IMG/VR virus record: IMGVR_UViG_3300033053_000010
Span: 1-57,313 of that record
Reading direction: 5' to 3' (one strand)
Origin: a virus
Taxonomy: Duplodnaviria; Caudoviricetes
DNA: 57,313 bases
The notes under the pieces were generated by a model. The model was not told the origin of the DNA. It saw nothing but the letters and a program-made list of their open reading frames with translations, and did no database searches. Positions 225-28,945 of this stretch are shown here, piece by piece. Each line of letters opens with the position of its first letter. Within the stretch, counting starts at the first letter, position 1. Both the position numbers and the translations under genes were made by a program.

Positions 225-2996
225 TTAACTCGCTTCTCCTTTCATGTAGTTCATAACGGTTGATGTTGATGCACCTACAGCTTGTGCTATCTGTGCTGTT
301 GTATAATTTCCTGATTGTATCATTTGATTTATTTTAGAAACTTTAATATTAGATAAAGTATTGGTTGTCCTTGGTGTTGCCAACTGCCTTAGTACATCCA
401 TGTCTGCATTGTTAATGATCTGTTGTAGTCTGTTTGGACTTATGGCACCAGCCTGTATAGCTTCCCATTCTCTATCATCTATCTTTATAGTCTCTCTCTT
501 AGCACCAACTTGAATTCTAGCAGCAGTTAATGCCTGTTGACTAACCTTCTTTAACTCACCTTTAGTCATGTCAGGATACTCTTGTTTCTTAGCTTTAATA
601 GTAGTATTAGCTATAACTTGAGCCCTTCTTTCTTTTGGTGCGTTCTTTAATGCTATGTTTAGTTTAGATTTTAAAGAGTTGAATTCATTTAAGTATTTAG
701 CTTTTGCTTCAGGATTATACTTAACATCTCCAGTACTCATCATCTCTTTACGAGCCTGATTAGCTAGAGACTTCATCTTGTTTGCATAATCGGCATAAGC
801 TTCCTCTTGTAGTGTTCCACTAGATAGGGTTCTAGCATCATTAGTTTCAGCCATGTTAGTAGACTTCTGCATTCTTGTTTGTATTTTACCATTCTTATCA
901 GTGTATTGTTGATAGTTCTCCTTCCATGTCTGCTCTCCAGTAACGGGGTCTATTATAGGGGAACCCTTTCTTTTGATGACTTGGTGTTCACCTTTAGCTC
1001 TAGATAATAGAGTTGATGCTCCACCTGAATGCCACTTACCTTGATCATCATAGTGACCTTGATATCTATTCTTTAATGATGCTATATCATTATCTATTTC
1101 AGACTTCTTATAATTTAAGATGTGCTTCTCAGCATCTATGACAACCATTGAATGTCTTACCGCTTTAGCTAATTCATCTTCTGTTGCACCCTTTAATGTC
1201 ATATCAGTTATTAAGTTTGAGATCTTACCCATTTCAGTTTGAGTATTCTTCATTCTTCTAAACTCATTACCATTAGCATCATAGTAATGATCGTTACCTT
1301 CTGCATCCTTCGTTGTCTTACTATACTTATATGATTTACTATCAAAGTCTTCCAAACCTTTTAACGGATTTGTAGATGTTATCTTTACGTTTTTGTTAGT
1401 TGGTATTGCTAACACCGTATCACCATCGAAATCCGCACCAGATAATCTCTCAGCAACCTTACTTGTTATGCCAACAGCATCTTTAGCATTCAAACCCATT
1501 GTTGCTCTGGCTTCTTTGTTCTTATTATTTACAGTTAAGATTGGTATCTCAAACGTTCCGCCATGTGGAAATCTAACAAGAGCTAACTTCTCACCATTCT
1601 CATAGTTTGGTGCATATACCTCATCATCTTTTAAAGAATTGATTGGTAGTATTACATGATACTTCTGTCTCGGTAATGCTGCTGATTTTAAATGGACAGC
1701 TGCAGAATCACAGTCATCTGAGAAAGATTTAAGTAAATTCTTTTTAATAGTTGGATTAGTTAATGATAATATTTCATTATACTCAGCTTCTCTTTCCTGT
1801 TTAGTAAGATCCAATTGTTTTTTAATTAGGGACAGATTTTGTTTACCTAGAAACTGTGATGGTAATTTATCTTTCCAATCATTCCAGTCTCCTTCATCAG
1901 CTCTCTTGTTTATAAGAGATAATGATTGTTTCTTTCCCGTAAGTGGATCTGTGAATTTTCCATTAGGATCGTCATATTTACTCTGTCCACCAGCTTTTAT
2001 TAGAGAACCAAACGGGTTGTCTGGATCCTCTTTTATTTTTTTAAGAACATCACCTTGTGGTGTACCAGTCTTTTTATTAGTGTTAAACCTAACGTCAACA
2101 CCCTTTGGTAAATCATCAGCATACACAGCCATACCTTTTAGATAATGTGTTCCATCCACCATTATTCTAACTTGGGCATAGTTAGAATTACCTAACGATA
2201 AATCTTTAACGCCTCTTCTTAATTCTATGACTCCATCCTTATGGATACCGCCAGTCTCAGCATAATTTATTTGTAACCTTTTACTATCTAAACTCGACGG
2301 ATAATGGAAAGTCTCGAATGTTTCCCCACCATCTCTAGATGTATAATTACCAATAGTGTTTACTTTCGAGAAGTCGTAAATATCTTTATGTTCTGTTCCA
2401 GGTGGACATAACACCTTTAAGTTTGTTTGTTGACCTTTATTGGTTGCTTGAGCAATTCCTCCTCCATATGTAGGATATCCTTGCATCTCTAAAATATATA
2501 GAGCAGTCTTTAGTTTTTCTTTAGATACGTTTAGTTCTCTCTCAACACCAGTACCAACATCGATCATTCCTTTTTCATCTACTTGTTTCTTTAGAAAGTC
2601 AGCAGTCTTGGTGGCTTCTTTCGATCGCTCTAAACTCTTCTCGTCCAGAATGGATCTAATGGATGAATCGTTACTGTAACCCATAATTTCAGCAGTCTTA
2701 GATAGAGAATATCCTTTATCTCTTAAAGCTTTAGCCTGTTCATACAATAACATCTTACGTTCGGAGTTAGCTAACGATATTTGAGTTCTTAATTTACTTG
2801 TTTGTGTTACTCCAGTTTTTGGATCTACAAAACCAAGGGTTTTAGCTACTTCTACTTCACTCATACCACTCTTTTTTAATTCATTAACCCTACTTAGGAA
2901 GTCACCACTATGTTGGTATGGGTCACCACCAGAACCCCATTTATATCTACCTGAATGTCTGGGGGTTCCATAATGTCTTAGGTTATCGCCATTCAT
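225..2996 (-). CDS. Single-chain two-barrel (double-psi) RNA polymerase-like protein of the YonO/cellular-RdRP-like type, with HTH-like segments
   Basis: Catalytic motif LSGADFDGD preceded by VRFPHGG; first-barrel-like QVRI...LKGM; downstream GKISN...LAKAVRHSMVVIDAEK; HTH-like segments near both ends; N-terminal LRHYG leader. Confidence 0.8.
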   Translation of the reverse strand: MNGDNLRHYGTPRHSGRYKWGSGGDPYQHSGDFLSRVNELKKSGMSEVEVAKTLGFVDPKTGVTQTSKLRTQISLANSERKMLLYEQAKALRDKGYSLSKTAEIMGYSNDSSIRSILDEKSLERSKEATKTADFLKKQVDEKGMIDVGTGVERELNVSKEKLKTALYILEMQGYPTYGGGIAQATNKGQQTNLKVLCPPGTEHKDIYDFSKVNTIGNYTSRDGGETFETFHYPSSLDSKRLQINYAETGGIHKDGVIELRRGVKDLSLGNSNYAQVRIMVDGTHYLKGMAVYADDLPKGVDVRFNTNKKTGTPQGDVLKKIKEDPDNPFGSLIKAGGQSKYDDPNGKFTDPLTGKKQSLSLINKRADEGDWNDWKDKLPSQFLGKQNLSLIKKQLDLTKQEREAEYNEILSLTNPTIKKNLLKSFSDDCDSAAVHLKSAALPRQKYHVILPINSLKDDEVYAPNYENGEKLALVRFPHGGTFEIPILTVNNKNKEARATMGLNAKDAVGITSKVAERLSGADFDGDTVLAIPTNKNVKITSTNPLKGLEDFDSKSYKYSKTTKDAEGNDHYYDANGNEFRRMKNTQTEMGKISNLITDMTLKGATEDELAKAVRHSMVVIDAEKHILNYKKSEIDNDIASLKNRYQGHYDDQGKWHSGGASTLLSRAKGEHQVIKRKGSPIIDPVTGEQTWKENYQQYTDKNGKIQTRMQKSTNMAETNDARTLSSGTLQEEAYADYANKMKSLANQARKEMMSTGDVKYNPEAKAKYLNEFNSLKSKLNIALKNAPKERRAQVIANTTIKAKKQEYPDMTKGELKKVSQQALTAARIQVGAKRETIKIDDREWEAIQAGAISPNRLQQIINNADMDVLRQLATPRTTNTLSNIKVSKINQMIQSGNYTTAQIAQAVGASTSTVMNYMKGEAS

Positions 2997-3556
2997 TAAA
3001 TATCACCTTCTTTTTTAATATCGTTTATTATTTTATCAAATGTTTTTATCTTATCCATTATTGGCAAGATCTCATCTGCTTCGGGAATATGATAAACTAT
3101 TTCGTCATTCTGATATATTCTTAATTCTATATCAATATCAGAAGGTTTTAATTTATATTCTAAACAAAACAATGCTGCATATATTAATAGTTGTTCTATA
3201 TGAGCTGGAGTAACCCCAGTTTTTAAATCATGTATTCGCAACAAACCACTTCTAAAAGATATAGCATCTGCTGTACCAAAACAATTATCTGAATAATATA
3301 ATATTTTTTCAGAACTCATTTTGTAACCGATAGCATCATTAACATATTTGTTTAAGGTTTTTTCACTCTTTGGTAGCTTCTGTCTCAACTTGATACAAGT
3401 AGATGCAAATTCGTGAAGCTCCGTTCCTTTTTGTGCTGCTACGGATCTAATATATGAATCTTTTAATTTGTCTTCAGAATAATTTAACCAACTATATTTA
3501 GAAGCGCTTAAATATGCATGTTTACCCTCAAGCTTTAAATGTTCGTTGAAGTTCAT
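2996..3556 (-). CDS. PD-(D/E)XK Cas4-like phage exonuclease
   Basis: HAYLSAS...GTELH...GTADAI...IHDLKTG...EQLLIYA motifs; stop overlaps the RNAP start (TAATG). Confidence 0.75.
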   Translation of the reverse strand: MNFNEHLKLEGKHAYLSASKYSWLNYSEDKLKDSYIRSVAAQKGTELHEFASTCIKLRQKLPKSEKTLNKYVNDAIGYKMSSEKILYYSDNCFGTADAISFRSGLLRIHDLKTGVTPAHIEQLLIYAALFCLEYKLKPSDIDIELRIYQNDEIVYHIPEADEILPIMDKIKTFDKIINDIKKEGDI

Positions 3557-3818
3557 TTAATACTTCCTCCTTATTTTCAGGACATATGAATCTAGAGAAT
3601 GACATCTTATTCATCATATCTACAAAATATGATTGATTTGGTTGATGTGATGCGGTAGATGATTTTTTACATTCTAAAGAAGCCCATTTATCTTTGTATA
3701 AAATTAAAAGGTCGGGAATACCCTGAATATAATTAGGATCGTTTTTTAAAACAATACAACCCATGAACATATTTTTTATTCTCTTGATTAAATCGCTCTG
3801 AAATTTATTTTCTTTCAT
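3528..3818 (-). CDS. VRR-NUC / Holliday-junction-resolvase-like nuclease
   Basis: ENKFQ...GIPDL...LECK...QPNQ pattern; start moved to ATG 3818 after a GAGGGG RBS. Confidence 0.75.
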   Translation of the reverse strand: MKENKFQSDLIKRIKNMFMGCIVLKNDPNYIQGIPDLLILYKDKWASLECKKSSTASHQPNQSYFVDMMNKMSFSRFICPENKEEVLNELQRTFKA

Positions 3819-3859
3819 ACATTGATCCCCCTCATTATATTTATATAGCTTGTACACTC

Positions 3860-3917
3860 AAAAAATATAGAGAATGTACAATTCGCACTCAAGGCATTAA
3901 AAATGCCTATTCTCTCT
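3860..3917 (-). ncRNA. Putative ~58-nt structured small RNA
   Basis: Starts at the +1 position of a promoter motif; terminal stem AGAGAAU/AUUCUCU encloses hairpin AGGCAU-UUUUA-AUGCCU and a second weak hairpin; ends in a U-tract; no ORF. Confidence 0.5.
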
Positions 3918-3941
3918 ATAAAAGGGCATGTAATTTTCGCG
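3917..3941 (-). promoter_or_regulatory. Phage promoter-like motif, copy 1
   Basis: CGC GAAAAT TACA TGCCC TTTTAT ^AGAG. Confidence 0.7.
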
Positions 3942-3950
3942 TGGTCGAAC

Positions 3951-3975
3951 AAAAAGAAAAAGCCTTTGTGGGCTT
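3951..3975 (-). terminator. Intrinsic terminator of cassette
   Basis: AAGCC-CACAAA-GGCTT followed by a T-tract. Confidence 0.65.
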
Positions 3976-4201
3976 ATTCTTTTATGATTTGTTCCTTAAC
4001 TATCGACATAATATAAACCTCATTATCAATAACGGTTTTAATTATTTTTCCACTTCTAGCCATTTTTTCTAGACCTATACCAATTACTGTTTCCTCTAGT
4101 TTTATACCTAAGTAACAACCAATTGTTAATAGACCTATTCCATAAGCTACTTTTTTAATTTTACTCTTTTTATTTGATATTTGATTTTTTATATTTTCCA
4201 T
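3974..4201 (-). CDS. Small membrane-anchored cassette protein (paralog family A)
   Basis: ORF with RBS between promoter motif and terminator; one TM-like segment; similar to 4484..4723 and 14890..15081. Confidence 0.7.
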   Translation of the reverse strand: MENIKNQISNKKSKIKKVAYGIGLLTIGCYLGIKLEETVIGIGLEKMARSGKIIKTVIDNEVYIMSIVKEQIIKE

Positions 4202-4217
4202 TATTAATCACACTCCT

Positions 4218-4242
4218 CATTATATAACATGTATAATTCGCG
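4218..4242 (-). promoter_or_regulatory. Promoter-like motif, copy 2
   Basis: CGC GAATTA TACA TGTTA TATAAT ^GAGG. Confidence 0.75.
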
Positions 4243-4269
4243 AGGAAAAAGGAAAAACCCTTGTTTGGG

Positions 4270-4419
4270 CTAATCCCACGATATCCATTCCATTATGCCA
4301 CATAACACACAAGCAAATATAATTATCACCATCATAGCTGCAACATATATTAGAGTTTCAATTATATTTCCAACTCTTCTACATTCCAGATATACCATTA
4401 ATAATTTTAATAACTTCAC
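4270..4419 (-). CDS. 49-aa hydrophobic cassette protein (not in ORF track)
   Basis: GTG start after AGGAG; MKLLKLLMVYLECRRVGNIIETLIYVAAMMVIIIFACVLCGIMEWISWD; fills the cassette exactly. Confidence 0.6.
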   Translation of the reverse strand: MKLLKLLMVYLECRRVGNIIETLIYVAAMMVIIIFACVLCGIMEWISWD

Positions 4420-4442
4420 ATTATCATCTCCTAATGTTTTCT

Positions 4443-4467
4443 CATAATAGGATATGTAAATATCACG
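4443..4467 (-). promoter_or_regulatory. Promoter-like motif, copy 3
   Basis: CGT GATATT TACA TATCC TATTAT ^GAGA. Confidence 0.8.
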
Positions 4468-4470
4468 GAG

Positions 4471-4496
4471 AAAAAGAAAGAGTCTATGTAAGACTC
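4471..4496 (-). terminator. Cassette terminator, type 1
   Basis: GAGTCTTACATAGACTC + TTTCTTTTT; the same 17-mer occurs at five sites. Confidence 0.8.
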
Positions 4497-4723
4497 AAAT
4501 TCTTTACTTCAGTTATTGATAATTTATATTCTTTTCCGTCTACAAAATTATTTATAGTCTTTCCGGTTCTAGCTAAATTATCTAACAACGTTTCGTATCT
4601 TGCTTTTTCATATATTCTTCCTATACGAACTCCAATCACTAACGTTGTAATACCACAAGCCGTCATCTTTAATCCTTTTTCATGATCTTTTATAAACTTT
4701 TTGATTTTATTCATATTAATCAA
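4484..4723 (-). CDS. Small membrane-anchored cassette protein (paralog family A)
   Basis: ORF between promoter 4732 and terminator 4471; TM-like segment. Confidence 0.7.
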   Translation of the reverse strand: MINMNKIKKFIKDHEKGLKMTACGITTLVIGVRIGRIYEKARYETLLDNLARTGKTINNFVDGKEYKLSITEVKNLSLT

Positions 4724-4731
4724 CCACCTTT

Positions 4732-4756
4732 CATAATAGCGCTTGTAAATATGGTG
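4732..4756 (-). promoter_or_regulatory. Promoter-like motif, copy 4
   Basis: CAC CATATT TACA AGCGC TATTAT ^GAAA. Confidence 0.8.
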
Positions 4757-4757
4757 T

Positions 4758-4783
4758 AAAAAGAAAGAGTCTATGTAAGACTC
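4758..4783 (-). terminator. Cassette terminator, type 1
   Basis: GAGTCTTACATAGACTCTTTCTTTTT. Confidence 0.8.
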
Positions 4784-4797
4784 AATCTTTTTGATTT

Positions 4798-5619
4798 TTA
4801 TTTAGTTGGTTTAAATCTGCTAAACATATTCTTAAACGTAGTTGACGTAAATGTTCCGGTTTCTTCAAACTTAAATCCTTTATCCATCCAAGCGTTGTAG
4901 AACATTACTGGTACTAATACAGTAATACCTTCTAATACTACTTTAATAATTCTATCTCTACTAAGTTCTATATTCTTATCAACTTCTATTTTCAATTCCT
5001 GATGCTTTAATTTCACATCGCTATTATTTTTCTTATCAGTTATTTTTATCTTTCTATTCTCTAAGTTTAAACTATCTTCATTTTTTTTACTCTCTATTCT
5101 TATCTTTTCTTTATTGATCTCATATTCTTTATTAAGCTTCTCTTTATTAAGTTCATAATCGTTGTTCATTTTCTTAACATCATTATCGATCTTTGAGATT
5201 TCGCTTTCAAGTTTTCTTTCGCTTAACTCTTGTTCGTAAGTTATTTTACGCAACTCATTATCAATCTTGTTGTTATCATTTTCGATTTTCTTAATATCTA
5301 CTTCATAATTGTTTTTGATCTTTTCTTTTTCTAAGTCTAGAGATTTCTTATTTTTATCGTTTTCACTTTCGAGTTTCTTTAAACCTAACTGATGATCTTT
5401 CTCAATCTTAGCGATTTCGTTTTTAATCTTCTCATCATTGAATCTAGAATTATTGTTATTAATATCCTCCTTTTGTAGTAAGTCTACTAAAGTACTAATT
5501 TCTTTTACTATGCTGCTTCTAGCTCCATAATATCCATCCTCCGTTGGATCCAAATTCTTTATTGATTTGAATTCCTCCATTACATATTTTTCAATTTCCA
5601 GTCTAATGTTATTGTTCAT
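4798..5619 (-). CDS. Coiled-coil repeat protein with a C-terminal hydrophobic segment
   Basis: 273-aa ORF; long K/E/N-rich helical repeats; C-terminal VVLEGITVLVPVMFYNAWM. Confidence 0.8.
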   Translation of the reverse strand: MNNNIRLEIEKYVMEEFKSIKNLDPTEDGYYGARSSIVKEISTLVDLLQKEDINNNNSRFNDEKIKNEIAKIEKDHQLGLKKLESENDKNKKSLDLEKEKIKNNYEVDIKKIENDNNKIDNELRKITYEQELSERKLESEISKIDNDVKKMNNDYELNKEKLNKEYEINKEKIRIESKKNEDSLNLENRKIKITDKKNNSDVKLKHQELKIEVDKNIELSRDRIIKVVLEGITVLVPVMFYNAWMDKGFKFEETGTFTSTTFKNMFSRFKPTK

Positions 5620-5647
5620 TTATTTTACCCCTTTCTTAATAAGTTCT

Positions 5648-5672
5648 CATAATAGCCCATGTTTATTTAGTG
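5648..5672 (-). promoter_or_regulatory. Promoter-like motif, copy 5
   Basis: CAC TAAATA AACA TGGGC TATTAT ^GAGA. Confidence 0.75.
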
Positions 5673-5678
5673 TGTAAT

Positions 5679-5702
5679 AAAATAAAGAGCCCTTGTAGGC
5701 TC
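5679..5702 (-). terminator. Cassette terminator, type 3
   Basis: GAGCCTACAAGGGCTC + T-rich tail; near-identical to 30064..30088. Confidence 0.75.
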
Positions 5703-5707
5703 AATAT

Positions 5708-5890
5708 TTATTTGTTTTGTTTTTTTACGATTGCGTCGACATATTCATTTAAATCTTTTATCTTATTCAAAATTTCTGAATATTCTTCTGTAAATAATTT
5801 GTCATAATCTATTACGTCCAAACTAATACTTAATATATTCTCCTCTTCTGATATAATATATGCTCTTGATTTTTCATTCATCTTAATCAC
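5708..5890 (-). CDS. Small cassette protein
   Basis: ORF with AGGAG RBS, between promoter 5898 and its terminator. Confidence 0.65.
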   Translation of the reverse strand: MIKMNEKSRAYIISEEENILSISLDVIDYDKLFTEEYSEILNKIKDLNEYVDAIVKKQNK

Positions 5891-5897
5891 TCTCCTT

Positions 5898-5922
5898 CAT
5901 AATAGTAAATGTATAAATTGCG
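5898..5922 (-). promoter_or_regulatory. Promoter-like motif, copy 6
   Basis: CGC AATTTA TACA TTTAC TATTAT ^GAAG. Confidence 0.8.
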
Positions 5923-5939
5923 GCCCCAAAATACGGGTT

Positions 5940-6201
5940 TGGTCAGATGCCCACTTTATTTGGTCAATTCTTTTATATTTATTAATTTTTTTATCATAAT
6001 AATAAAGAATAAAAGTGGGAAAGTGGGCAAAAACCCTCACAAATGGCTCAACCATGCGGGTTTGCGGGTTTTTCAAAAGTGGGCAGAAAGTGGGCAGAAA
6101 GTGGGCAAGTGGCCATAAATATAACAAAACATCCTTACAATTCTACCAAATTTCCACGAAAAACCAATCCTGGTCACTTTCACATTTTTCAAAAGTGGGC
6201 A
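5940..6201. repeat. Iteron-like AAAGTGGGCA repeat cluster with an AT-rich spacer; putative replication origin
   Basis: AAAGTGGGCA at 6020, 6076, 6087, 6098 and 6192; inverted copy at 5948-5957; variants at 6012 and 6107; AT-rich tract ~5968-6011. Confidence 0.7.
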
Positions 6202-6226
6202 AAAAGAAAGAGTCCTTGTAAGACTC
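6201..6226 (-). terminator. Cassette terminator, type 1 variant
   Basis: GAGTCTTACAAGGACTC + TTTCTTTTT. Confidence 0.75.
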
Positions 6227-6237
6227 AATACATATTC

Positions 6238-6417
6238 TTAATATAAATATCCTTTAAAACTCTGTATGGTGATCCTCAACATAACTTTGGCTTCTTCTAT
6301 TTCTCTCTTAGACATACATTTAGCTAACCCGATTCCCTTTTCTAAATCTGATAATTCCTTTCTGTATTGTTCCAAAAGTTTCATATCTGCTTCCTTTGTT
6401 TGTTGTTCAAAATCCAT
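6238..6417 (-). CDS. 59-aa cassette protein (not in ORF track)
   Basis: MDFEQQTKEADMKLLEQYRKELSDLEKGIGLAKCMSKREIEEAKVMLRITIQSFKGYLY; GGGGG RBS. Confidence 0.65.
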   Translation of the reverse strand: MDFEQQTKEADMKLLEQYRKELSDLEKGIGLAKCMSKREIEEAKVMLRITIQSFKGYLY

Positions 6418-6444
6418 AATTGATTCCCCCTATATTTATTATTC

Positions 6445-6469
6445 CATAATAGGAGTTGTATATAAAGCG
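6445..6469 (-). promoter_or_regulatory. Promoter-like motif, copy 7
   Basis: CGC TTTATA TACA ACTCC TATTAT ^GGAA. Confidence 0.8.
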
Positions 6470-6510
6470 CAAAAACAAAATAATATGTAGCAAAAAACAA
6501 AGAGAGAAGC

Positions 6511-6705
6511 CTATGCTTCATCTTCTTCGAACATCTTTTTTATCTTTCTATTAAGCCAAACGCGCAAAAATGGTAAAAACGGTAACACCAAAGCTCCAAC
6601 AATTACATAATATAGTATTGCTATCCATAATGGGATTTCCCTACCAAAATAGTAACCTAGTTGCTCTCTTACCGATTTAAAATCATTTATTATCTTGTTC
6701 ATCAT
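6511..6705 (-). CDS. Small membrane cassette protein
   Basis: TM segment WIAILYYVIVGALVLPFLPFL; GGAGG RBS. Confidence 0.7.
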   Translation of the reverse strand: MMNKIINDFKSVREQLGYYFGREIPLWIAILYYVIVGALVLPFLPFLRVWLNRKIKKMFEEDEA

Positions 6706-6731
6706 AATTAATTCCTCCTAAGATTTATTCT

Positions 6732-6756
6732 CATAATACCATATGTTTTTATCGCG
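6732..6756 (-). promoter_or_regulatory. Promoter-like motif, copy 8
   Basis: CGC GATAAA AACA TATGG TATTAT ^GAGA. Confidence 0.8.
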
Positions 6757-6778
6757 TGTAAAAAGAAAAGAGGAAGTA

Positions 6779-7048
6779 TCAAAACCCCTCTAACGTTTTT
6801 AATACCTCATCTAATTTCTTACCAGATATAATATTATTTATATAATCTACTACATTTTTGAAATCGCTATCATACAACGTGTAGCCCATATGAACATCGC
6901 TGATCCTAAATTCTTTATCGTCATTATAATCGTCTATATTTAATGTCCCAAACATTTTTTTATTAATTTTTTTATAGTCGTATTGTATACTTATAGAATT
7001 TACACCTTCAAATTCATCATGTCTTACGTTTGATATTTTTATTTCCAT
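6779..7048 (-). CDS. Small cassette protein
   Basis: 89-aa ORF, AGGAGG RBS. Confidence 0.7.
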   Translation of the reverse strand: MEIKISNVRHDEFEGVNSISIQYDYKKINKKMFGTLNIDDYNDDKEFRISDVHMGYTLYDSDFKNVVDYINNIISGKKLDEVLKTLEGF

Positions 7049-7078
7049 AATCGTAACCTCCTAATAATTTTATTATTC

Positions 7079-7103
7079 CATAATAGGAGATGTATGTCTG
7101 GCG
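7079..7103 (-). promoter_or_regulatory. Promoter-like motif, copy 9
   Basis: CGC CAGACA TACA TCTCC TATTAT ^GGAA. Confidence 0.8.
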
Positions 7104-7113
7104 CAAAAAGAAA

Positions 7114-7190
7114 AGAGAATGTACGGGATTCGAACCCGTCCCTCACCAATATTTCAGGTGCGCTCCTACCATGATAGCTAACACTCTCTC
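7114..7190 (-). ncRNA. tRNA-like RNA with a non-canonical anticodon arm
   Basis: Acceptor AGAGUGU/ACAUUCU, U8-A9, D-arm GCU...GGUA..AGC, stem CACC/GGUG around UGAAAUAUU, T-arm ACGGG-UUCGAAU-CCCGU; no encoded CCA; followed by a U-tract. Confidence 0.7.
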
Positions 7191-7214
7191 ATAACACAAC
7201 ATGTTTTTCTCGCG
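7190..7214 (-). promoter_or_regulatory. Promoter-like motif, copy 10 (heads the tRNA-like RNA)
   Basis: CGC GAGAAA AACA TGTTG TGTTAT ^GAGA. Confidence 0.75.
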
Positions 7215-7220
7215 CATATA

Positions 7221-7361
7221 CTAATTATCAATTTCAGCTTTTGTTATTATCTCACCATCAAATTTTATTATTATATCAGAATGAAATTGCCAATTATCAA
7301 CTCGTATTGTTAGGTTTTCTTTTAATATATCTTTTATCTCTTTTTTCATATCCTCAGTCAT
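7221..7361 (-). CDS. 46-aa hypothetical protein
   Basis: MTEDMKKEIKDILKENLTIRVDNWQFHSDIIIKFDGEIITKAEIDN; GGGGTG RBS. Confidence 0.55.
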   Translation of the reverse strand: MTEDMKKEIKDILKENLTIRVDNWQFHSDIIIKFDGEIITKAEIDN

Positions 7362-7376
7362 ATGATACACCCCTTT

Positions 7377-7583
7377 TTAAATCTGTATTTTAGGCACATT
7401 CGTAGTTTCTTTAAAAATATATAAATGCACCGTACACCCATCATCATTTAATACTATGTTACTATCAATATAATCCTGATTACCGACTAATTGTTTATGA
7501 ATATTCTCTAAAACCCTACCGGCTTCTTCCTGGCTGTCATTTTCAATTATTATATGTTTATCACCTTTTCCAACTAAGTTCAT
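7377..7583 (-). CDS. Hypothetical protein
   Basis: ORF with GGGAG RBS, in operon context. Confidence 0.65.
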   Translation of the reverse strand: MNLVGKGDKHIIIENDSQEEAGRVLENIHKQLVGNQDYIDSNIVLNDDGCTVHLYIFKETTNVPKIQI

Positions 7584-7600
7584 TTTTTATTTCCTCCCTT

Positions 7601-8461
7601 TTATATATCAAACACTGATTCTATCTCAGTAAACTTTTCAATCTCTTTCATACCAATTTCCTGAATCTCTTTTAATGACGTCTTTAATGCTTCAATTTTA
7701 GCTTTTACACCATCAATCTTAGTGTTGTACTCCGCAGCCAATTTAACCTTCTCTTTCATAACCATATCTTTATCGCTATATAATCTATCACCTATTTTAA
7801 CACCATCAGCATTCTTAATATAAGTGCCATATTCGCCTTCAACTTCTGTAGTAACTCTAATCACCTTTAAACTAATCTTTTTTTCTGGCCCTACTGTTTT
7901 TCCAGCTTCTTTTTCATTAATGTTCTCCATCTTTTTCTCCTCTACAACAACTTCTTTATTAATTATAGGATTAACAACGATTGGTCCAACATTTTCCGGA
8001 ACCCTATCTGTTTCTTTACGATATTCCATATTCTTACACTCCAACCATAAATCTGATAGCTCAGCAAATGGTAAATTGAATTCGTTCTTAAGAAGTTTTA
8101 GACCCTTAGCCTTAGCCACCTTAGTGTTCATAAGTTTTATTATTTTACCTTTAATTTCTTTTCTTAGTTCCTCATTATCAATCATTTTTATACCCCCGTT
8201 TTTTTCATTTTCTAAAAATTCCCCGTAATCAACCATATATTCTTTAGTCTTTGTAATAACATTTTTAATATCATGTATGGTGACTTCTAATACATCATCC
8301 AACGCACCAATCATACACATGTCAGATATCACGTTCATCATGTTGTTATTTGAATTTATTTTATCATTTATTATTCCATATATCATTTGTTTCTTATCTT
8401 CTGCTAAACTATTGAACCATTGCTCCAAACGATCCATCTTTCTTTTTTCTTCTCTACCCAT
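7601..8461 (-). CDS. Hypothetical protein (286 aa)
   Basis: Long ORF with GGGG RBS; no recognisable motif. Confidence 0.75.
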   Translation of the reverse strand: MGREEKRKMDRLEQWFNSLAEDKKQMIYGIINDKINSNNNMMNVISDMCMIGALDDVLEVTIHDIKNVITKTKEYMVDYGEFLENEKNGGIKMIDNEELRKEIKGKIIKLMNTKVAKAKGLKLLKNEFNLPFAELSDLWLECKNMEYRKETDRVPENVGPIVVNPIINKEVVVEEKKMENINEKEAGKTVGPEKKISLKVIRVTTEVEGEYGTYIKNADGVKIGDRLYSDKDMVMKEKVKLAAEYNTKIDGVKAKIEALKTSLKEIQEIGMKEIEKFTEIESVFDI

Positions 8462-8516
8462 TACTTATCCCCCATATGTCAAATAAAAGATAAGAGGCCT
8501 TGTTAGGGCCCCTACC

Positions 8517-8870
8517 TTATTTTAATACTCTCATATCCTCTAGAATATCAGATAAACGTTCTCCACATTTTTTACGTCTGTCAATTATTATCCATTCTTT
8601 ATTTGAAAGTTCTCTCTTAAGTCTCCAATAATGACCTAGACTTCTGTCATAGCAATATAATTCTTTTAGATCTTTAGTCTTACGTAACGTTATATGTTTA
8701 CCTACCGTCTTTATAATCGGTGCAGCAATACCTATAACTATTGGCGTTAAAACTATGATCGCTTCTTTATTTTCTATGACCCAATCCTTGCCATCTTGAA
8801 TCTTCTGTTCGACCCTCCATTTTAAATCCTGAAATTTTTGACTTTCATAAATATCTTTTATGTTTCTCAT
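8517..8870 (-). CDS. Cassette protein with a central hydrophobic segment
   Basis: ORF flanked by promoter 8902 and GGCC hairpin/T-tract at 8481-8513. Confidence 0.75.
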   Translation of the reverse strand: MRNIKDIYESQKFQDLKWRVEQKIQDGKDWVIENKEAIIVLTPIVIGIAAPIIKTVGKHITLRKTKDLKELYCYDRSLGHYWRLKRELSNKEWIIIDRRKKCGERLSDILEDMRVLK

Positions 8871-8901
8871 TTTTTCATTCCTCCTAAATATGATTATTTC
8901 T

Positions 8902-8926
8902 CATAATAGGCGGTGTATAGAATGCG
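8902..8926 (-). promoter_or_regulatory. Promoter-like motif, copy 11
   Basis: CGC ATTCTA TACA CCGCC TATTAT ^GAGA. Confidence 0.8.
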
Positions 8927-8930
8927 AATA

Positions 8931-9041
8931 CTATCTTCTCATGTATCTAAATAATATCCATAATAACCATATTCCACCAGTTATCCAAGTCATAAATAAA
9001 TCAAATAGAAAACTACCTAAACCATAACTTCCTTTACTCAT
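8931..9041 (-). CDS. 36-aa membrane peptide
   Basis: MSKGSYGLGSFLFDLFMTWITGGIWLLWILFRYMRR; AAGGAAG RBS. Confidence 0.6.
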   Translation of the reverse strand: MSKGSYGLGSFLFDLFMTWITGGIWLLWILFRYMRR

Positions 9042-15094: not shown

Positions 15095-15580
15095 CTAGAA
15101 CATATCGTCCGTATAACCTTTATATTCTTTTAAATAATCCTCAAAAGATATATCTTCATCATCGTTATCTTCTCTTCGTTTACACTCTGCTTCCCATTCG
15201 TCAACCAGAGGATCAGAACCATTGAGCATATCTTCGAAATCCATTTCGTCTCTCAATCTTAAATCCTTCAAAATACCTTTAACTTTTGTTTTAAATCGTC
15301 TAGCTATTGGTTTACGAGACTGCATTAAAACTTCATATAAACCATATTCTGTTAGAAACCATTTATCCACAGCATTTCCACGAGCACTCGTATTATTGTT
15401 ACGAATGCTCACTAATCTTTTTTCATCCGGATCAACAGTTTTTAACATATGGGAAGTGTTACCGACACTATAATCCAAAAGTCTAGCAACATCTACTGCT
15501 AAGAATAATGGTTCGTCCTTAGTTCCATAAATATTTAAATCATGTCCCTGTACAATTATTTTTTCTAAAATATCAATCAT
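15095..15580 (-). CDS. Bro-N domain DNA-binding protein (antirepressor-like)
   Basis: IYGTKDEPLFLAVDVA...FLTEYGLYEVLMQSRKPIARRFK. Confidence 0.85.
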   Translation of the reverse strand: MIDILEKIIVQGHDLNIYGTKDEPLFLAVDVARLLDYSVGNTSHMLKTVDPDEKRLVSIRNNNTSARGNAVDKWFLTEYGLYEVLMQSRKPIARRFKTKVKGILKDLRLRDEMDFEDMLNGSDPLVDEWEAECKRREDNDDEDISFEDYLKEYKGYTDDMF

Positions 15581-15955: not shown

Positions 15956-16360
15956 TTAATCTATGTTTTTTAAACCTGCCGGTATCCACATCTTAGGGTT
16001 ATAATTAAGAGTGTATTTATACTTATCAACATTCTTAATATTCTTCTGCTCAACAACATATGTCACATTGTCACTTAACCCAATAAAATGTTTTTGATAT
16101 GATCCATCTGAATTTTCAACAATTACTTCTAATTGTTTATCTGCTGTATCGGCTTTGATGGATAATTTACCTGTCATCTGAAATATAACATCTCCCTGAA
16201 TACAGTTAATTACTGTTAGTTGTCTAACGACGTTAAAATTATCAGCCTCCTGTGATAGATTTTGTGAAACCTTATCAGATTGTTGTCCAACGCATCCAGA
16301 AACAAACACGGTCAAAGTTAACATTACACCAACAATAATACTCTTTAATTTTTTATTCAT
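15956..16360 (-). CDS. Phage lipoprotein
   Basis: Signal peptide with lipobox VSGC. Confidence 0.75.
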   Translation of the reverse strand: MNKKLKSIIVGVMLTLTVFVSGCVGQQSDKVSQNLSQEADNFNVVRQLTVINCIQGDVIFQMTGKLSIKADTADKQLEVIVENSDGSYQKHFIGLSDNVTYVVEQKNIKNVDKYKYTLNYNPKMWIPAGLKNID

Positions 16361-16897: not shown

Positions 16898-17022
16898 AAA
16901 AAGAGAAGTATATGTCTGGGCATCGAAACTCCATCATCACAGCCAATCTTTACGATCTCGTTACGTGAACATATACCTATTTATAATAACACTCGTCATT
17001 ATCTTATATTTTATCTCTTTTC
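16898..17022 (-). ncRNA. Putative ~125-nt structured RNA
   Basis: Starts at promoter +1; closing stem AAAAGAGA/UCUCUUUU, hairpin AUAAUGAC-GAGU-GUUAUUAU, stem GUAUAUGU/ACAUAUAC; no meaningful ORF. Confidence 0.55.
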
Positions 17023-17046
17023 ATAATAGCGCTTGTAAACATTGCG
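17022..17046 (-). promoter_or_regulatory. Promoter-like motif, copy 13
   Basis: CGC AATGTT TACA AGCGC TATTAT ^GAAA. Confidence 0.8.
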
Positions 17047-17049
17047 TAT

Positions 17050-20000
17050 CTAATCGACAAATTGTGCAAAGTCGCCATATTTTTCAATAGCTTTTACTGC
17101 GTCATTAACCAGTTCGTTATATACGGTTCTGTCTATATTTTCTTCCTCATTAAGTTCCTTAACCATGTCAGACTCAAGCCAGTAATAACCTTTTGTTCCA
17201 TTTACTGCTCCATATTTTTTCTCACCAGTTTTCTTATCTATAGATTCCCTTAGTAATATACCACCATGTCCCTCTTTCATAGGACAGAACGAGCCAACCT
17301 TACCAATGAAATGTAAGTCACTAGAATCAATAGGCGGCTCTCCGGGATTCATATCCATATACATACATGAACTAACTGATTTAGTCTCACATAAATCTTT
17401 GAACTCTATTGGTTCTTTACTGAATAACTTCTTGAACACATATGGAACTTGGAATTGAGTTCCAGTAGCAGTCCATTCACCACCGTGGTCCTTACAATCA
17501 CCCGGAGTATACCCATATAATTTCTTACAGAGTTTCTCTGTCGCATATTTAGCAACATATACCGCATCATTTACTAGACACATTTTCTCATAAGTTGCCT
17601 CGTGCTCAAATTTATAACCGTATCGTTCTCCAAATTTCATAACATGCTCTATTATCTCAGGAGTAGCATTTGGTATTTTTATAGAGTCAGTCTTGACATG
17701 TGCAACAGTAAATCCAAGAGATTGAACCTCTTTCATTAGATCTATCATAAATAAAGCACCACGTTTGGCAACTATATTATCCTTATTCCTTATGTCCCTA
17801 AATGCATTATTAAAGGACGCACTAGTTAAACCATATGCTGAGTTTATAGGAGTCTTTAGCGCTGTACCTAGAGCCTTAGTTGAATATTCCCCGTCTTTTA
17901 ACACTTCATATAACATACCATCCAGTAATGATTTTATGGCTTCTTCATCATTATGTTTTATTGCTATTCTGGATTGAACTATATCCATGAATCTCTTTGT
18001 ATACTTTGGTCCAAATAAACACTCGGTTATCATTGAATGTGGATGCATTGATGCTACGTCCAATAACGCTACATTGTGATGTATTCCAGGCTCCGCATAC
18101 ACATATCCACCCTCACCCACTTCTTCACCTCTGTAAGTAGACTTTCCATTTTCAAATTTGTAACCCGGGAAGAAAGGTAATAAACTCTTTTCTCCATTCC
18201 AAGCTTCAAATCTTAGAGGTAATATGTTGTTATGTTTTATGAACTCATACATATCCATATTTATAGTGTCAAAAGGAACATATTTTTCTTTGTTAAAGAA
18301 ATCATCTGGGTCGTCATCCTGAGGTCCAAACATCATCTCATCTGGATAATATACTGGTAACGACATATCTCTATAATTGAATTCATCATGCGGGTTCTTG
18401 TTCTTCCCAAATACTATTCTAGTAGATAAAGTATTCGTTGTATCATTAACGGACATGTCAGCCATTTTTGCTAGAATTTTTCTAGCTGTCCAGTCATTCT
18501 TCAAATAATTAAACGTTGCCTCTGTAGCAAGAACATCATCATCACAATATTCAGCAACCTTCAACCATTTTTCCTTAGGTACTGGTTGATCCCAAGGTAA
18601 TCCTAATTCATGATGTTTAAGTCCTAATTGTATTTCGTATTTTTTCAAAGATTGTTTATTTGGTGCTGACGCGAAATCATATACGTCTGTATAAGATAAA
18701 TTATATGCTTCACCAAAGAATGCATTCTTATCACCAGATATAATCCTTTGAGATAATCTATATAGTTGCTCATTAGTATATCCCATTAGACACCCATATA
18801 ATATATGATTATCATATCGTCTACAATTGAAACCAACTAGATTGAAATTCAACAATTCCTCTATCTCTGCTGGTTTAGGATTTATCATTCTTACAACGGG
18901 TTTGCCTTCACCTTCTATTTTCCAATTTACTAGAAATAGATTTGGGAATACCTCAACGTCATAAAATATAATATCGTCTTTTTTACTTCTAACTGCTACG
19001 CTAGGGTCTTCTGATTTAAAACTCATCTTGTTAACAAGTTTTATACAATAATCAGATTGATTTGTACTATTTGCAGCGAATGCTAAAACCGCATTTCTCA
19101 TATCTGTTAGATCATATGGAAATCCTTCTTTCTTAGCATCCTCTAATATTTTATATATGAAATCAACACTAGGTTTAGTTCCTTGATGTATCTCTTTTTT
19201 CAAATTTTTCTTAACCATTACACGTAATATTTTTTCGTTCTTAATGATGCTGTTATCGATCATATTCTTTTTACCCTCCCTTAGTGGTAATCCAGAACTT
19301 ATCTCATTGATTGGTAGATTATTACATTTAGTCAATTTCCTTCTCAATGATGAATTACCATTGTACACCTTGACCTCTATATGTTCACCATATATTCTAC
19401 TTAGTTTACTGACATCACCTTTATAAATATAATGTAAGTGTATACCGGCTCCACTTTTACTTAATTCAGAATATGTTTCAGGCCATTTATTAGCTTCTTT
19501 CAAATTTAACTCTAGTGATTTATTGCCATTTTCATCAGGTATATCAAAATCTATTACTATGTGATTTTCTGGTACTTTAACATAATGTACTTTTTTAGTG
19601 TCGATATCTTTTAATTTGGTCCTAACATTATCCCATTTATATGTTGGTATTCCTTCATCGTTTGCTAATTGAGCCATACTATCTTTCATCTGTTTATCAA
19701 ATATGGATTCTATATTTTCCTTGAAATCAATCGAGTATCCATTAACAACGACTTCATCCTCATTTTCTTCGTCCTTATTATTGGTAAATATGCTTTTCTT
19801 GAAACCAACATATGCGTTTCTAACCCTTACCCCGTCAATAGCATCTCTTTCTTTAAAGTCATCAAAATAGTTTTTGAGTTCCTCTTTGAAAACTCTTTGC
19901 GTGAAAGGATATGGTATATTTGATTCTTCACAATAATTCTTATACATTTCCCAAGCAGCCTTCAAGGTGGTTGAATCATCTTTTGAAAATACATAATATG

Positions 20001-21078: not shown

Positions 21079-21150
21079 ATCATACTATGCCCCCTTTTTC
21101 TTGGGTGTTATATTTTTCATGTAACCCCACCCCTTGCAATGTAAAGATAA

Positions 21151-22265: not shown

Positions 22266-22353
22266 ATTAATACACTCCTTTATTTTTATATAATAGATAG
22301 GAAAAGTCAAGCATGTTTTTATGTGGATTGCCCGACCCATAACCGTTTATGTC

Positions 22354-23298: not shown

Positions 23299-23325
23299 TT
23301 TTCATCTTTCCTTCCTTATTTTAAT

Positions 23326-23538
23326 TTATTTTTTATTTATTGAAAAGGATATTTTCTTATCAAGATTGATATTTAATTCAGCATCGATTGTTAATTCAAA
23401 ACCATCTCCGTTTTCCTCACATTTAACTATAGACCCTACGACTTTACGTTCCTCGTTAAAAAATGGTTTTCCAACATAGTCTTCTGATTTTCCTATTTTT
23501 GCTACTATCGCTTTAAATATCATCATTACACCCTCCAT
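23326..23538 (-). CDS. Hypothetical protein
   Basis: ORF in operon context. Confidence 0.55.
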   Translation of the reverse strand: MEGVMMIFKAIVAKIGKSEDYVGKPFFNEERKVVGSIVKCEENGDGFELTIDAELNINLDKKISFSINKK

Positions 23539-24809: not shown

Positions 24810-25538
24810 TTAATAATGTATAGGTACTACTTCATAATCTATTACTAAACATGGTTCACCATTATCAGCGATGGATGAACTATAACTAACCTCTAGATAT
24901 TCCTTATCAATATCCCATCCGAGTTCGCATCCAATTTTTACAACGTTTATACCAAGTTCTATATAGAAATCATTTAGTTGTATTGTCATGTCATTTCTTA
25001 ATCTCTTATTTATCACATTTACCGCACGATCAATTTCCTCAGTACTACCTCTAAAATATCGTCCAGACATACTATCATATATCAGGATATTTCCTTTGGA
25101 GGTAACCATAACTTCCTTATTTCCAATAGGATCTCTTCTTAGTTTCTCAGCAGCCACTTCTCTTCTTATATCATCATATTTTTCTGGATCTACAGAATCC
25201 TTAACCTTTTCCTTAAATATTCGGAACGCTGATTCTGATGCTGTATACGCAGTAGCCACTGCGGCCAACTTATTATTTGTTATGTTTCTTGAAAATACTA
25301 TTTGTGTTATACCAACCCCGGCAAGTAATACGGGCGGTATATATAACGGAGCTATTGCTTTCACCTTTTCCATAGTAGTCTCGTTCTTCTTTTTTTCAGC
25401 TATCTTTAAAGCCTTTGGTGTTTGTTTTATTCCTAATATTCCACCAGCTAATATACAACCGACACCTCCGACTAAAAGTAAATCAGAAGCATTCCTCGAT
25501 ATAAGTTTTTGTGCGTCTTTAAAATATGGTATCATCAT
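24810..25538 (-). CDS. Paralog family B protein
   Basis: LNDFYIELG...GCELGW motif; N-terminal TM segments. Confidence 0.7.
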   Translation of the reverse strand: MMIPYFKDAQKLISRNASDLLLVGGVGCILAGGILGIKQTPKALKIAEKKKNETTMEKVKAIAPLYIPPVLLAGVGITQIVFSRNITNNKLAAVATAYTASESAFRIFKEKVKDSVDPEKYDDIRREVAAEKLRRDPIGNKEVMVTSKGNILIYDSMSGRYFRGSTEEIDRAVNVINKRLRNDMTIQLNDFYIELGINVVKIGCELGWDIDKEYLEVSYSSSIADNGEPCLVIDYEVVPIHY

Positions 25539-26765: not shown

Positions 26766-27485
26766 TTAGAACATATCGTAATTCACTCTCGGTTGGTTTG
26801 AATAATTCAAATAATAATACTCACAACCAGCATCGTCTTCCATTTTTCTATGTTCGAAATCAACCCACGGGTTAGTCGTTGTAGACGCATATCCTTCACA
26901 TACAGACCAACCCAGAATTTCCCCAGCCTCTGTTTGTGGTATACCTAATAATCTATAGAATTCATTAAGAGACGCATGACCAACTATTGATAATTGTTTA
27001 TTGAATAGATATTCAGCTTTAAGTACGTTTTCTATTGTGCTTGAGAAAAACTTAGAAGTATATTCTTCGTAGAATATCTTCTCACCCGTCCTTTCAAGGT
27101 AAAGATCTTTAGGTACCTTATTTTTAACAGTTTCCTTCATTATTTCTTCTTTGGTTTGTTGATTACAAGTATGATCTATATTCTCCCTCAAAGATTTATA
27201 GTTGTCTTGTACGGACGTTAGGGTGTTTAACAACGCTATTTTTTCATTCATGGTTACTTTATCAGAATATATAATACATAACATTGTACTTGTCATTATC
27301 ATACCCGATGGAATATAACACTTCCAAGTTCTTTTTATTTTCTCTCTTAGTGTCATATCGTCATCTATTAATTTACAAGCTTTATGCGTATCCTTTATTG
27401 CTGAATACATAGTCAACCCAACACCAACTACGGAAGCAAAGTTTAATATAAATTGTTTATCCTTTCTTATTATGTTTTTTATCAT
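26766..27485 (-). CDS. Paralog family B protein
   Basis: LNEFYRLLG...GEILGW motif; N-terminal TM segments. Confidence 0.7.
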   Translation of the reverse strand: MIKNIIRKDKQFILNFASVVGVGLTMYSAIKDTHKACKLIDDDMTLREKIKRTWKCYIPSGMIMTSTMLCIIYSDKVTMNEKIALLNTLTSVQDNYKSLRENIDHTCNQQTKEEIMKETVKNKVPKDLYLERTGEKIFYEEYTSKFFSSTIENVLKAEYLFNKQLSIVGHASLNEFYRLLGIPQTEAGEILGWSVCEGYASTTTNPWVDFEHRKMEDDAGCEYYYLNYSNQPRVNYDMF

Positions 27486-28776: not shown

Positions 28777-28921
28777 AGAAATAGAGTTGTAGGGAGAGAC
28801 GAACTCCTACAACGGCGAGAGGGTTTTCACCTCCAACATTCGCTTCACACCGTGTCTATTTCTGATCATAGATAGTCCCTCCTGCTTTTTCAATGGGGAT
28901 CGAACCCATCATCTATTTCTC
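28777..28921 (-). ncRNA. Putative ~145-nt structured RNA with two T-loop-like hairpins
   Basis: Starts at promoter +1; closing stem AGAAAUAGA/UCUAUUUCU; GAUGGG-UUCGAUC-CCCAUU; GUUGUAGG..UUCGUCU..CCUACAAC; GAAA-capped hairpin; U-tract. Confidence 0.6.
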
Positions 28922-28945
28922 ATAATAGCACGTGTAAATTACGCG
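28921..28945 (-). promoter_or_regulatory. Promoter-like motif, copy 21
   Basis: CGC GTAATT TACA CGTGC TATTAT ^GAGA. Confidence 0.8.

Follow-up and report, generated by a model that had tools for sequence, protein, structure and literature searches.

The 57,313 bp stretch of DNA that makes up IMG/VR virus record IMGVR_UViG_3300033053_000010 (hereafter the window; a single record, estimated to be 96% complete, with every long open reading frame, ORF, on the minus strand) encodes a tRNA-shaped RNA at 7188..7114. Comparative analysis suggests that this locus is a member of a conserved and unannotated family of non-decoding tRNA-shaped small RNAs that act in trans as tRNA mimics, a reading to which a probability of about 0.5 is assigned. 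That the RNA is a selected non-decoding tRNA mimic is very probable from the comparison of sequences, and its action in trans is slightly favoured. A mimic acting in trans is preferred because the elbow and acceptor are conserved, the central arm is free to vary, the RNA lies between promoter and terminator, the genes behind it are unrelated between lineages, P092 holds two copies and three lineages, including the window, have stand-alone units.

Architecture of the tRNA-shaped RNA

ARAGORN identifies a single tRNA-type gene in the whole window, at 7188..7114 on the minus strand, and labels it tRNA-Ile(aat). The cloverleaf is also the minimum-energy fold of this copy. The elements are as follows.

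7114..7188, minus strand: tRNA-shaped RNA, 75 nt, recovered by ARAGORN, RF00005, our own model R1 and the minimum-energy fold
7188-7181 paired with 7122-7115, minus strand: acceptor stem, eight contiguous pairs GAGAGUGU/ACAUUCUC, one of them G.U
7178-7176 and 7174 paired with 7165-7162, minus strand: D stem, with A7175 bulged
G7170 and G7169, minus strand: the GG held in the D loop
7160-7157 paired with 7147-7144, minus strand: central hairpin, with loop 7156-7148 (UGAAAUAUU)
7143-7140, minus strand: variable region, 4 nt
7139-7135 paired with 7127-7123, minus strand: T arm, with loop 7134-7128 (UUCGAAU), a perfect ACGGG/UUCGAAU/CCCGU

All the features that an initial annotation had read from the window are borne out. 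The acceptor, described there as 7 bp with extra pairs, has eight contiguous pairs both in ARAGORN and on direct reading, and the D-loop GG and the T arm with UUCGAAU are both present in the ARAGORN drawing and in the sequence. The anticodon arm is CACC-UGAAAUAUU-GGUG as described, with 4 bp, a 9-nt loop and no U33. CCA is indeed not encoded, with the U-tract UUUUCUUUUU (7114..7105) following immediately after the 3′ strand of the acceptor, and the promoter and U-tract end described there are found as a motif copy directly 5′ and a U-tract directly 3′ of the RNA. The initial annotation expected a pseudo or undetermined gene from ARAGORN; the label returned was tRNA-Ile(aat). This label depends on another register of the central arm, with 5 bp including a U.U pair, a 7-nt loop GAAAUAU and an A at position 33.

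In the family alignment the D arm has a 4-bp stem with one bulged A; ARAGORN draws it as a 3-bp stem with an 11-nt loop. The stacked acceptor and T stems of the window copy amount to 13 bp, the extra U-A acceptor pair adjoining the T stem, and fold analysis allows two extra flanking pairs beyond the 8-bp acceptor. The fold energy itself is not significant (z = -1.4, with 20 of 200 shuffled sequences folding equally well), and the window RNA stands above chance because of its homology and covariation with relatives, not by fold energy alone. With its bulged D stem, 9-nt loop and variant promoter, the window copy is a somewhat diverged member of the family.

Family members and covariation

Relatives were collected through the RNA polymerase (RNAP) of the phage, a 923-residue protein encoded at 2996..225 on the minus strand that matches phrog_4291 with E = 0; the tRNA-like sits 4.1 kb upstream of it. 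IMG/VR holds 319 relatives of this RNAP; the 80 best were retrieved together with 10 kb on either side. Searches of the whole records of such relatives used the tRNA model RF00005 (50 records) and R1 (49 records), a covariance model built from six members of which the window copy is one. RF00005 gave exactly one match above cut-off in 23 of the 50 records; of the 14 records with a completeness of 90% or more, 11 were among these. R1 added two more copies, one in the closest relative and a degraded one in G046, which brings the near-complete records with a copy to 12 of 14; neither model detected a copy in the other two (G002 and G019). Non-seed members score 28–61 bits with R1, and the 67.4 bits of the window copy are circular as it is a seed.

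The family extends to phages with RNAPs down to 38–49% identical to that of the window. The closest relative, whose RNAP is 80% identical, has its copy 2.5 kb upstream of that gene, in the same cassette region as in the window, and ARAGORN misses it. FP_oengus (NC_047916.1; RNAP 49% identical) has a tRNA-like at 2936-3005 and also a canonical tRNA-Met(CAU) with an encoded CCA at 18558-18633; positions 1-20,500 of its record carry no annotated RNA feature. Lactococcus phage P092 (NC_024203.1; RNAP 38% identical) has two copies, at 23610-23682 and 23998-24070, which are 388 bp apart in unannotated gaps between small ORFs and differ only in an 11-nt central stretch. Phages P162 and P078 match the P092 copy at 92–97% identity, again with no feature annotated there. 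A GA start and a UA-GCU D arm are common to members, and the T arm of the window copy is identical to that of locus L104. No match was found in Arthrobacter phage Niktson with RF00005, or in Gordonia phage Petito, Streptomyces phage CherryBlossom, MT835495.1 and the partial 'Siphovirus contig89' with R1.

Covariation was assessed in two alignments, A6 (15 distinct sequences, model-based) and A5 (19 sequences). In A6, 95.1% of the cells are in standard pairs, compared with 79.5% in shuffles and 35–56% for slid partners, and 10 of 17 pairs and 36 cells are changed on both sides, values that none of 500 shuffles reach; these figures are to be read with the fitting of the alignments to the model, which favours pairing, and with the close kinship of several sequences of the main clade. 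In A5, 96.4% are paired and 8 of 17 pairs show double changes. The mean pairwise identity differs between the parts of the molecule.

D arm, 17–19 nt: 0.83
T arm, 17 nt: 0.76
Acceptor strands, 7–12 nt: 0.72–0.73
Central segment, 3–28 nt: 0.47

The tRNA body (acceptor, D and T helices) thus appears to be held by selection across phages whose RNAP identity drops to 38%, and the arm that would read codons appears not to be.

The impression that the window copy is an orphan was rejected by the whole-record matches. It is misleading because most relatives carry their copy more than 20 kb from the RNAP gene and because ARAGORN misses that of the closest relative. More local searches gave little: ARAGORN, run on 60 of the 80 RNAP-centred loci, called no tRNA in any of them, blastn of the tRNA-like region against the loci returned nothing, and DNA searches with 6500-7900 recovered neither close nor remote matches from the phage collection. 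In viral_contigs, no relatives turned up for the flanking proteins 7601..8461 and 6779..7048. Among the pattern searches, a 17-mer pattern matched six loci, none in a tRNA, a D-arm-plus-T-loop pattern matched only an unrelated tRNA-Arg, and neither a T-arm-plus-acceptor pattern nor a D-arm pattern run on metagenomes gave a match; exact and degenerate scans gave chance or unrelated matches only.

The variable central arm

ARAGORN assigned a sense anticodon to one of the 23 relatives' copies found with RF00005 (that of L109, as tRNA-Ile(tat)); 15 were called 'tRNA-Stop(tta)', four 'undetermined' and three were not detected. The copies called 'tRNA-Stop(tta)' form the main clade and have a 7-nt loop GAUUAAA, with A33, on a 6-bp stem with an A.C mismatch, and those called 'undetermined' have 6- or 8-nt loops. 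A canonical loop with U33 (CUUAUGU) occurs in one of 13 lineages, that of L109. Loop lengths across the family are 5, 6, 7, 8 and 9 nt, and the forms of the arm outside the main clade include the following.

L104, L105, L124 and FP_oengus: 4 bp, 6-nt loop
L103: 6 bp, 6-nt loop
Window: 4 bp, 9-nt loop
Closest relative: CCCU-GAAAUA-AGGG, the loop core common to the window and the stem differently built
L128: 5-nt loop
P092: 11-nt stretch without a stable stem
L120, 1501-1582, minus strand: arm replaced by a 33-nt hairpin region in an 82-nt RNA, other arms unchanged
L125, 286-343, minus strand: arm wholly lost in a 58-nt RNA, other arms unchanged

Decoding by this RNA family is very unlikely, judging from the absence of U33, the unfixed length of the loop, the occasional absence of the arm and, in the window, the 13-bp acceptor/T stack. 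The core proposal of the initial annotation, a non-decoding tRNA-like RNA, is therefore supported both by the central arms of the relatives and by compensatory changes in the other helices. It had also named a finding that would speak against it, namely relatives with a normal tRNA at this site and a decayed copy here; this was not found, and the relatives' tRNA-likes are also non-canonical centrally. Its alternative, a degenerate tRNA pseudogene, does not fit as simple decay since three helices covary and the central arm varies. A simple pseudogene was likewise rejected on the grounds that relatives have no intact tRNA at the site and that decay is not spread over all arms.

Visual inspection of the central loops for triplets resembling codons, which might form kissing pairs with host anticodons, revealed no consistent pattern. 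G3.U70, the alanine identity element, was rejected as a family feature, as it is present only in the main clade and L105.

Comparison with tRNA and tRNA-like models

As a tRNA the window copy is borderline. No Rfam family matches it at gathering thresholds; the best match is to the tRNA-Sec model, whose alignment skips the anticodon arm and reaches 25.2 bits where the cut-off is 47, and RF00005 in another search mode gives 30.4 bits against a cut-off of 29, compared with about 39–58 bits for the relatives. The canonical T loop UUCRANY, the G53-C61 pair and the D-loop GG are present. The canonical anticodon arm, in which a 5-bp stem carries a 7-nt loop that has U33 and a purine at position 37, is absent, the acceptor has eight pairs in place of the canonical 7 bp on a 5-bp T stem, and CCA is encoded neither here nor in any family member read.

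Several specific identities were considered and rejected. Only the 8/5 acceptor/T feature of tRNA-Sec (RF01852) is present, and the UCA anticodon, long variable arm and extended D stem are lacking. A suppressor tRNA of a recoded phage would carry a CUA, UCA or UUA anticodon in a canonical loop, and none is seen; the large ORFs are open under translation table 11 in the window and in one main-clade locus, in the latter including that of a 918-residue RNAP. The tRNA-like domains of YrlA and tmRNA gave no Rfam match at gathering thresholds or at E values up to 10.

Promoter, terminator and cassette setting

The motif ACA-N5-TRTTATG has 22 matches in the window, all on the minus strand, where 0.57 would be expected; its full form is CGC..(T)TACA-N5-TATTATGAGAAAT. 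The 5-nt spacing between TTACA and TATTAT is incompatible with a sigma-70 −35/−10 pair, and the motif is therefore read as the putative promoter of the phage's own YonO/RdRP-like polymerase. The family of phrog_4291-type polymerases is described as YonO/RdRP-like, with helix–turn–helix domains at both ends, in a preprint (10.1101/842583). Lactococcus phage P092 has the same promoter architecture, with TATAAT. The signals around the tRNA-like are as follows.

7189..7216, minus strand: promoter motif copy of the tRNA-like, CGCG..AAAAACA-N5-TGTTATGA, ending 2 nt before the first acceptor base
7105..7114, minus strand: U-tract UUUUCUUUUU, abutting the 3′ strand of the acceptor; likely transcript end
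7070..7104, minus strand: next promoter motif copy, before the 89-residue ORF 7048..6779

The unit in the window consists of promoter, RNA and U-tract without an ORF, and the promoter copy at 7070..7104, which is predicted to drive the 89-residue ORF, would make the tRNA-like a stand-alone unit here. FP_oengus and copy 2 of P092 are also followed by a fresh promoter, so that no gene would be co-transcribed in these three units. There is no terminator between the upstream ORF 7370..7221 and the tRNA-like, so read-through into it is also possible.

Across the family, the RNA starts 1–5 nt after a TATTATG/TATAATG element in 12 of 13 lineages, the exception being the closest relative with its 38-nt leader. 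Every lineage has a terminator signal, which is a U-tract abutting the acceptor in eight (including the window) and a separate hairpin and U-tract within about 45 nt in four (L104, L105, L109 and L137). The GA before the acceptor can pair with a conserved UC after it, which would fit a transcript whose first base is the G following the hexamer and whose 5′ end is fully paired. The downstream gene, depending on the lineage, encodes a 105-residue protein, a LigA-like ligase or a membrane protein, or is lacking altogether. The membrane protein is homologous to window ORFs 27485..26766 and 25538..24810. Three paralogous proteins of phrog_2152 are encoded on the minus strand at 22354-23298, 24810-25538 and 26766-27485, a 258-residue homologue follows the tRNA-like in L105, and proteins in the equivalent cassette region of the FP_oengus record are named 'DUF6353 family'.

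The early regions of the window (~3.5–9 kb and 17–30 kb) are made of small cassettes with many promoters and terminators. Between 3500 and 9500 there are 16 terminator-like sites, with 1.3 expected, most of them a short hairpin followed by UUUCUUUUU just ahead of the next motif. About 21 motif copies on the minus strand in 3500-9000 and 17000-30100 each come after a hairpin/T-tract terminator, forming arrays of one-gene cassettes. Scans of 30 neighbouring and early-region ORFs against PHROG and Pfam revealed no tRNA-processing, ligase, CCA-adding or synthetase genes. One other cassette recalls the tRNA-like.

28880..28935, minus strand: second promoter copy with a T-arm-like hairpin AUGGG-UUCGAUC-CCCAU; the motif match is of the standard form

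The local R1 match to it (28914..28893; 11.6 bits, E of about 1) is not significant alone. The hairpin is followed (region 28770-28935, minus strand) by a possible 20-residue ORF with a ribosome-binding site and then by a strong hairpin terminator. It may represent a small RNA, or what is left of a tRNA-like in the position that most relatives use for theirs.

Elsewhere in the window, the word GTGGGCA(G/A)AAAG occurs three times at 6069-6101 and 6185-6206 (plus strand as listed), twice preceded by TTTTTCAAAA; this repeat lies near a cassette boundary and may serve to bind a protein. Two minus-strand genes encode proteins resembling a recombination directionality factor (phrog_478; 15956-16360) and an anti-repressor (15095-15580). 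No integrase was found among the 30 window ORFs scanned; FP_oengus has one, about 1.5 kb from its tRNA-like (the FP_oengus loci are L134, 1500-1571, for the tRNA-like and L132, 1501-1579, for tRNA-Met). An attP remnant is an unlikely identity for the RNA, as the virulent phage P092 has two copies and every copy stands behind a promoter.

Proposed mechanism and alternative explanations

In the mechanism proposed here, the phage would make a separate RNA of about 75–80 nt from its own promoter to the U-tract, the 5′ end of which, probably the G just after TATTAT, would be base-paired into the extended acceptor helix. The RNA would imitate a tRNA toward a protein that recognizes tRNA shape without using the anticodon, and the target enzyme would work on the acceptor end or measure from the elbow. 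In the most likely version, still a tentative one, the RNA would compete harmlessly with tRNA for a host defence or toxin enzyme directed at tRNAs, or pose as a substrate that this enzyme cannot cleave; the target might also be a tRNA-processing enzyme. T-box and RelA sensing require pairing of a specifier or codon with the anticodon, and both are poor decoy targets because this RNA cannot offer such pairing; classical anticodon-loop nucleases would also miss their loop in it. More plausible targets of a decoy are proteins that recognize the acceptor end or the elbow, or take their measure from either. Toxins modifying the acceptor ends of tRNAs have relatives in the AbiE-type nucleotidyltransferases of Lactococcus, and an AbiE-type enzyme would be a natural first candidate for the target in the P092 system. 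It is conceivable, if speculative, that a widespread lineage of Firmicute phages, with FP_oengus, P092, P162 and P078 among them, makes a dedicated stand-alone tRNA decoy that sequesters or blocks a tRNA-directed host immune enzyme or toxin and leaves translation undisturbed. In a bolder variant, the tRNA-like would be a cofactor or template for the phage's RdRP-like RNA polymerase.

Several observations weigh against a selected mimic acting in trans. Some members have a degraded look, L137 having lost the D-loop GG as well as the motif of the T loop, and L136 having a T-stem mismatch and a 38-nt leader. The tRNA-like is dispensable, given that G002 and G019 have no detectable copy. The window copy may be weakly expressed, as its motif is the sole one of the 22 with TGTTATG in place of TATTATG (a G at the second position of the hexamer). 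Most relatives have a promoterless ORF 10–45 nt after the RNA, an arrangement that fits action in cis as well as in trans, and the main-clade loop is one that ARAGORN can call as 'tRNA-Stop(tta)'. The fitting and kinship that colour the covariation figures belong here too.

In the main alternative, the RNA would be a cis-acting 5′ module, with the tRNA shape heading the transcript as an end-defining, stabilizing or attenuating signal for the next gene, whether through cutting by RNase P or RNase Z, a decay-resistant paired 5′ end, or the acceptor and U-tract serving as a leaky terminator. Such a role is compatible with the invariable start of the RNA at the promoter, with the abutting U-tract in 8 of 12 lineages and with the ORF that follows at 10–45 nt, without an intervening promoter motif, in the main clade, L103, L104, L105, L109, L124, L128, L136, L137 and copy 1 of P092. 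It is nevertheless unlikely: there is no downstream message in the window, FP_oengus and copy 2 of P092, where a new promoter comes next, the downstream genes are unrelated between lineages, about 20 other cassettes of the phage use the same promoter without such a module, and the conservation of the T loop and of the D-loop GG goes beyond what terminating or stabilizing a transcript would demand, since a plain hairpin could do either. Alternatively, the locus could be a vestigial tRNA gene, an ancestral working phage tRNA that lost decoding in many lineages, is drifting and owes its apparent conservation to short divergence and promoter constraint. The canonical loop CUUAUGU that L109 retains on the family body, the damaged look of several members (L125 and L137), the two complete relatives without a copy and the possibility that the first two acceptor pairs are fixed by the initial transcribed sequence of the promoter would all be accommodated by this explanation. 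It is improbable in view of a loss limited to one arm, with compensatory double changes in 10 of 17 pairs of the other three helices, of a family that spans phages with RNAPs only 38–49% identical to that of the window, and of the retention in P092 of two copies differing only in the central arm.

Two further explanations keep the RNA within the tRNAs proper. A working tRNA with an odd anticodon loop (Ile(AAU), a non-triplet reader by way of the 9-nt loop, or an ochre suppressor in the main clade) is highly improbable. The tRNA core is intact, and ARAGORN does offer tRNA-Ile(aat) for the window and 'tRNA-Stop(tta)' for 15 of 23 relatives; but position 33 is an A in both ARAGORN registers, the loop varies from 5 to 9 nt by lineage, the arm can be absent, the window copy has eight acceptor pairs, and the ORFs of the window and of the main-clade locus are open under table 11 with nothing suggesting recoding. 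Scarcely credible is a class II (Ser/Sec-type) tRNA that has lost its anticodon arm, in which the hairpin would be a long variable arm addressing seryl-tRNA synthetase. This idea arises from the Rfam tRNA-Sec model, which places the hairpin on the variable arm and skips the anticodon arm, and from the same C-G-closed 9-nt loop in the variable arm of the phage tRNA-Ser genes of L090, L092 and L093/L095/L096, a loop pattern with only six matches across 185,579 species genomes, all outside tRNAs. In the family alignment the hairpin instead falls in line with central arms that are ordinary and short and whose loops are quite dissimilar, which already suggests descent of the central arm from the anticodon arm of class I-like members; GAAAUA is shared only by the closest relative, the tRNA-Sec score of 25.2 is far from the cut-off of 47, and the shared 11–13-mer was imposed by the search pattern.

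The tRNA-Ser genes with variable-arm loop UGAAAUAUU are at L090 3304-3396, L093 5576-5664 (also L095 and L096) and L092 ~5455-5560 and have three anticodons; that of L092 has an apparent hairpin insert of about 33 nt on the 3′ side of the anticodon loop. The same loop is found in a 74-nt tRNA at L091 9382-9455 (= L089 ~2150-2230, minus strand), which scores 42 bits with RF00005, is not called by ARAGORN and belongs to an array of 19 phage tRNAs. It has the central arm UCC-UGAAAUAUU-GGA and adjoins a class II Ser(UGA)-like tRNA that likewise escapes ARAGORN. The shared 9-nt loop could be a coincidence or a common phage hairpin.

Relation to known systems and significance

The nearest functional parallels are phage tRNAs. 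Phage tRNAs with changes in the anticodon loop are reported to escape host tRNA nucleases (eLife 2023, PMC10264068), a T5 tRNA to counter PARIS (PMC11464382) and tRNAs to act against retron effectors (PMC11555353). The family resembles these in that it is a tRNA-derived phage gene, varies mostly in the anticodon arm and may plausibly be tied to immunity directed at tRNAs, but those tRNAs decode and replace cleaved host tRNAs. The family cannot replace tRNAs in translation because it has loops of 5–9 nt or no arm, and no U33. Defences directed at tRNA are reported to be common and able to act off the anticodon loop: a Cas12a3 cuts tRNA tails (PMC12851939), the anticodon arm is taken off by OLD (PMC12445682) and cleavage by a Schlafen nuclease falls between positions 30 and 31 (PMC13056530).

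Non-decoding RNAs with tRNA shape are established elsewhere. The tRNA-like RNAs of murine gammaherpesvirus 68 (MHV68) and the cellular mascRNA are tRNA-shaped, non-decoding, small stand-alone RNAs; they are eukaryotic and are either made by RNA polymerase III or cut from long transcripts. They share with the phage family a tRNA shape without decoding and have no sequence relation to it, and no bacterial-virus counterpart of them was found in the literature searched. The tRNA-like domain of tmRNA and YrlA also mimic the acceptor, T arm and D loop without an anticodon arm and engage tRNA-binding proteins, as modules of larger RNAs with defined partners (SmpB and Rsr, respectively). The phage tRNA-like shares this acceptor/T/D mimicry and has no Rfam match to either. 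A 2025 review is cited beside the MHV68 tRNA-likes and mascRNA (PMC12680231). In a Firmicute, the Bacillus cereus pseudo-tRNA 'tRNAOther' is a non-translational tRNA-like RNA with a phenotype; unlike the phage family, it is reported to be chromosomal, confined to a single species and to flank a genomic island, with no phage promoter and no family with a hypervariable arm (PMC3399842).

For this RNA, Rfam offers nothing but the general tRNA model, and no description of the tRNA-like family was found in the literature searched, supplements aside. The conservation pattern indicates that the tRNA-like is, in all likelihood, a real, selected, non-decoding tRNA mimic of a new family. Standard tools mislabel its copies ('tRNA-Ile', 'tRNA-Stop' or undetermined), and both genome annotation and work on stop-codon recoding could be led astray. 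Current accounts of phage tRNAs invoke codon supply or the replacement of tRNAs destroyed by defences, and a conserved shape without decoding points to a third use, tRNA mimicry as such. If true, the decoy would be a bacterial-virus counterpart of the herpesvirus tRNA-like RNAs, and the presence of the family in cultured pairs of host and phage (Faecalibacterium prausnitzii with FP_oengus; Lactococcus lactis with P092, P162 and P078) makes the question directly testable.

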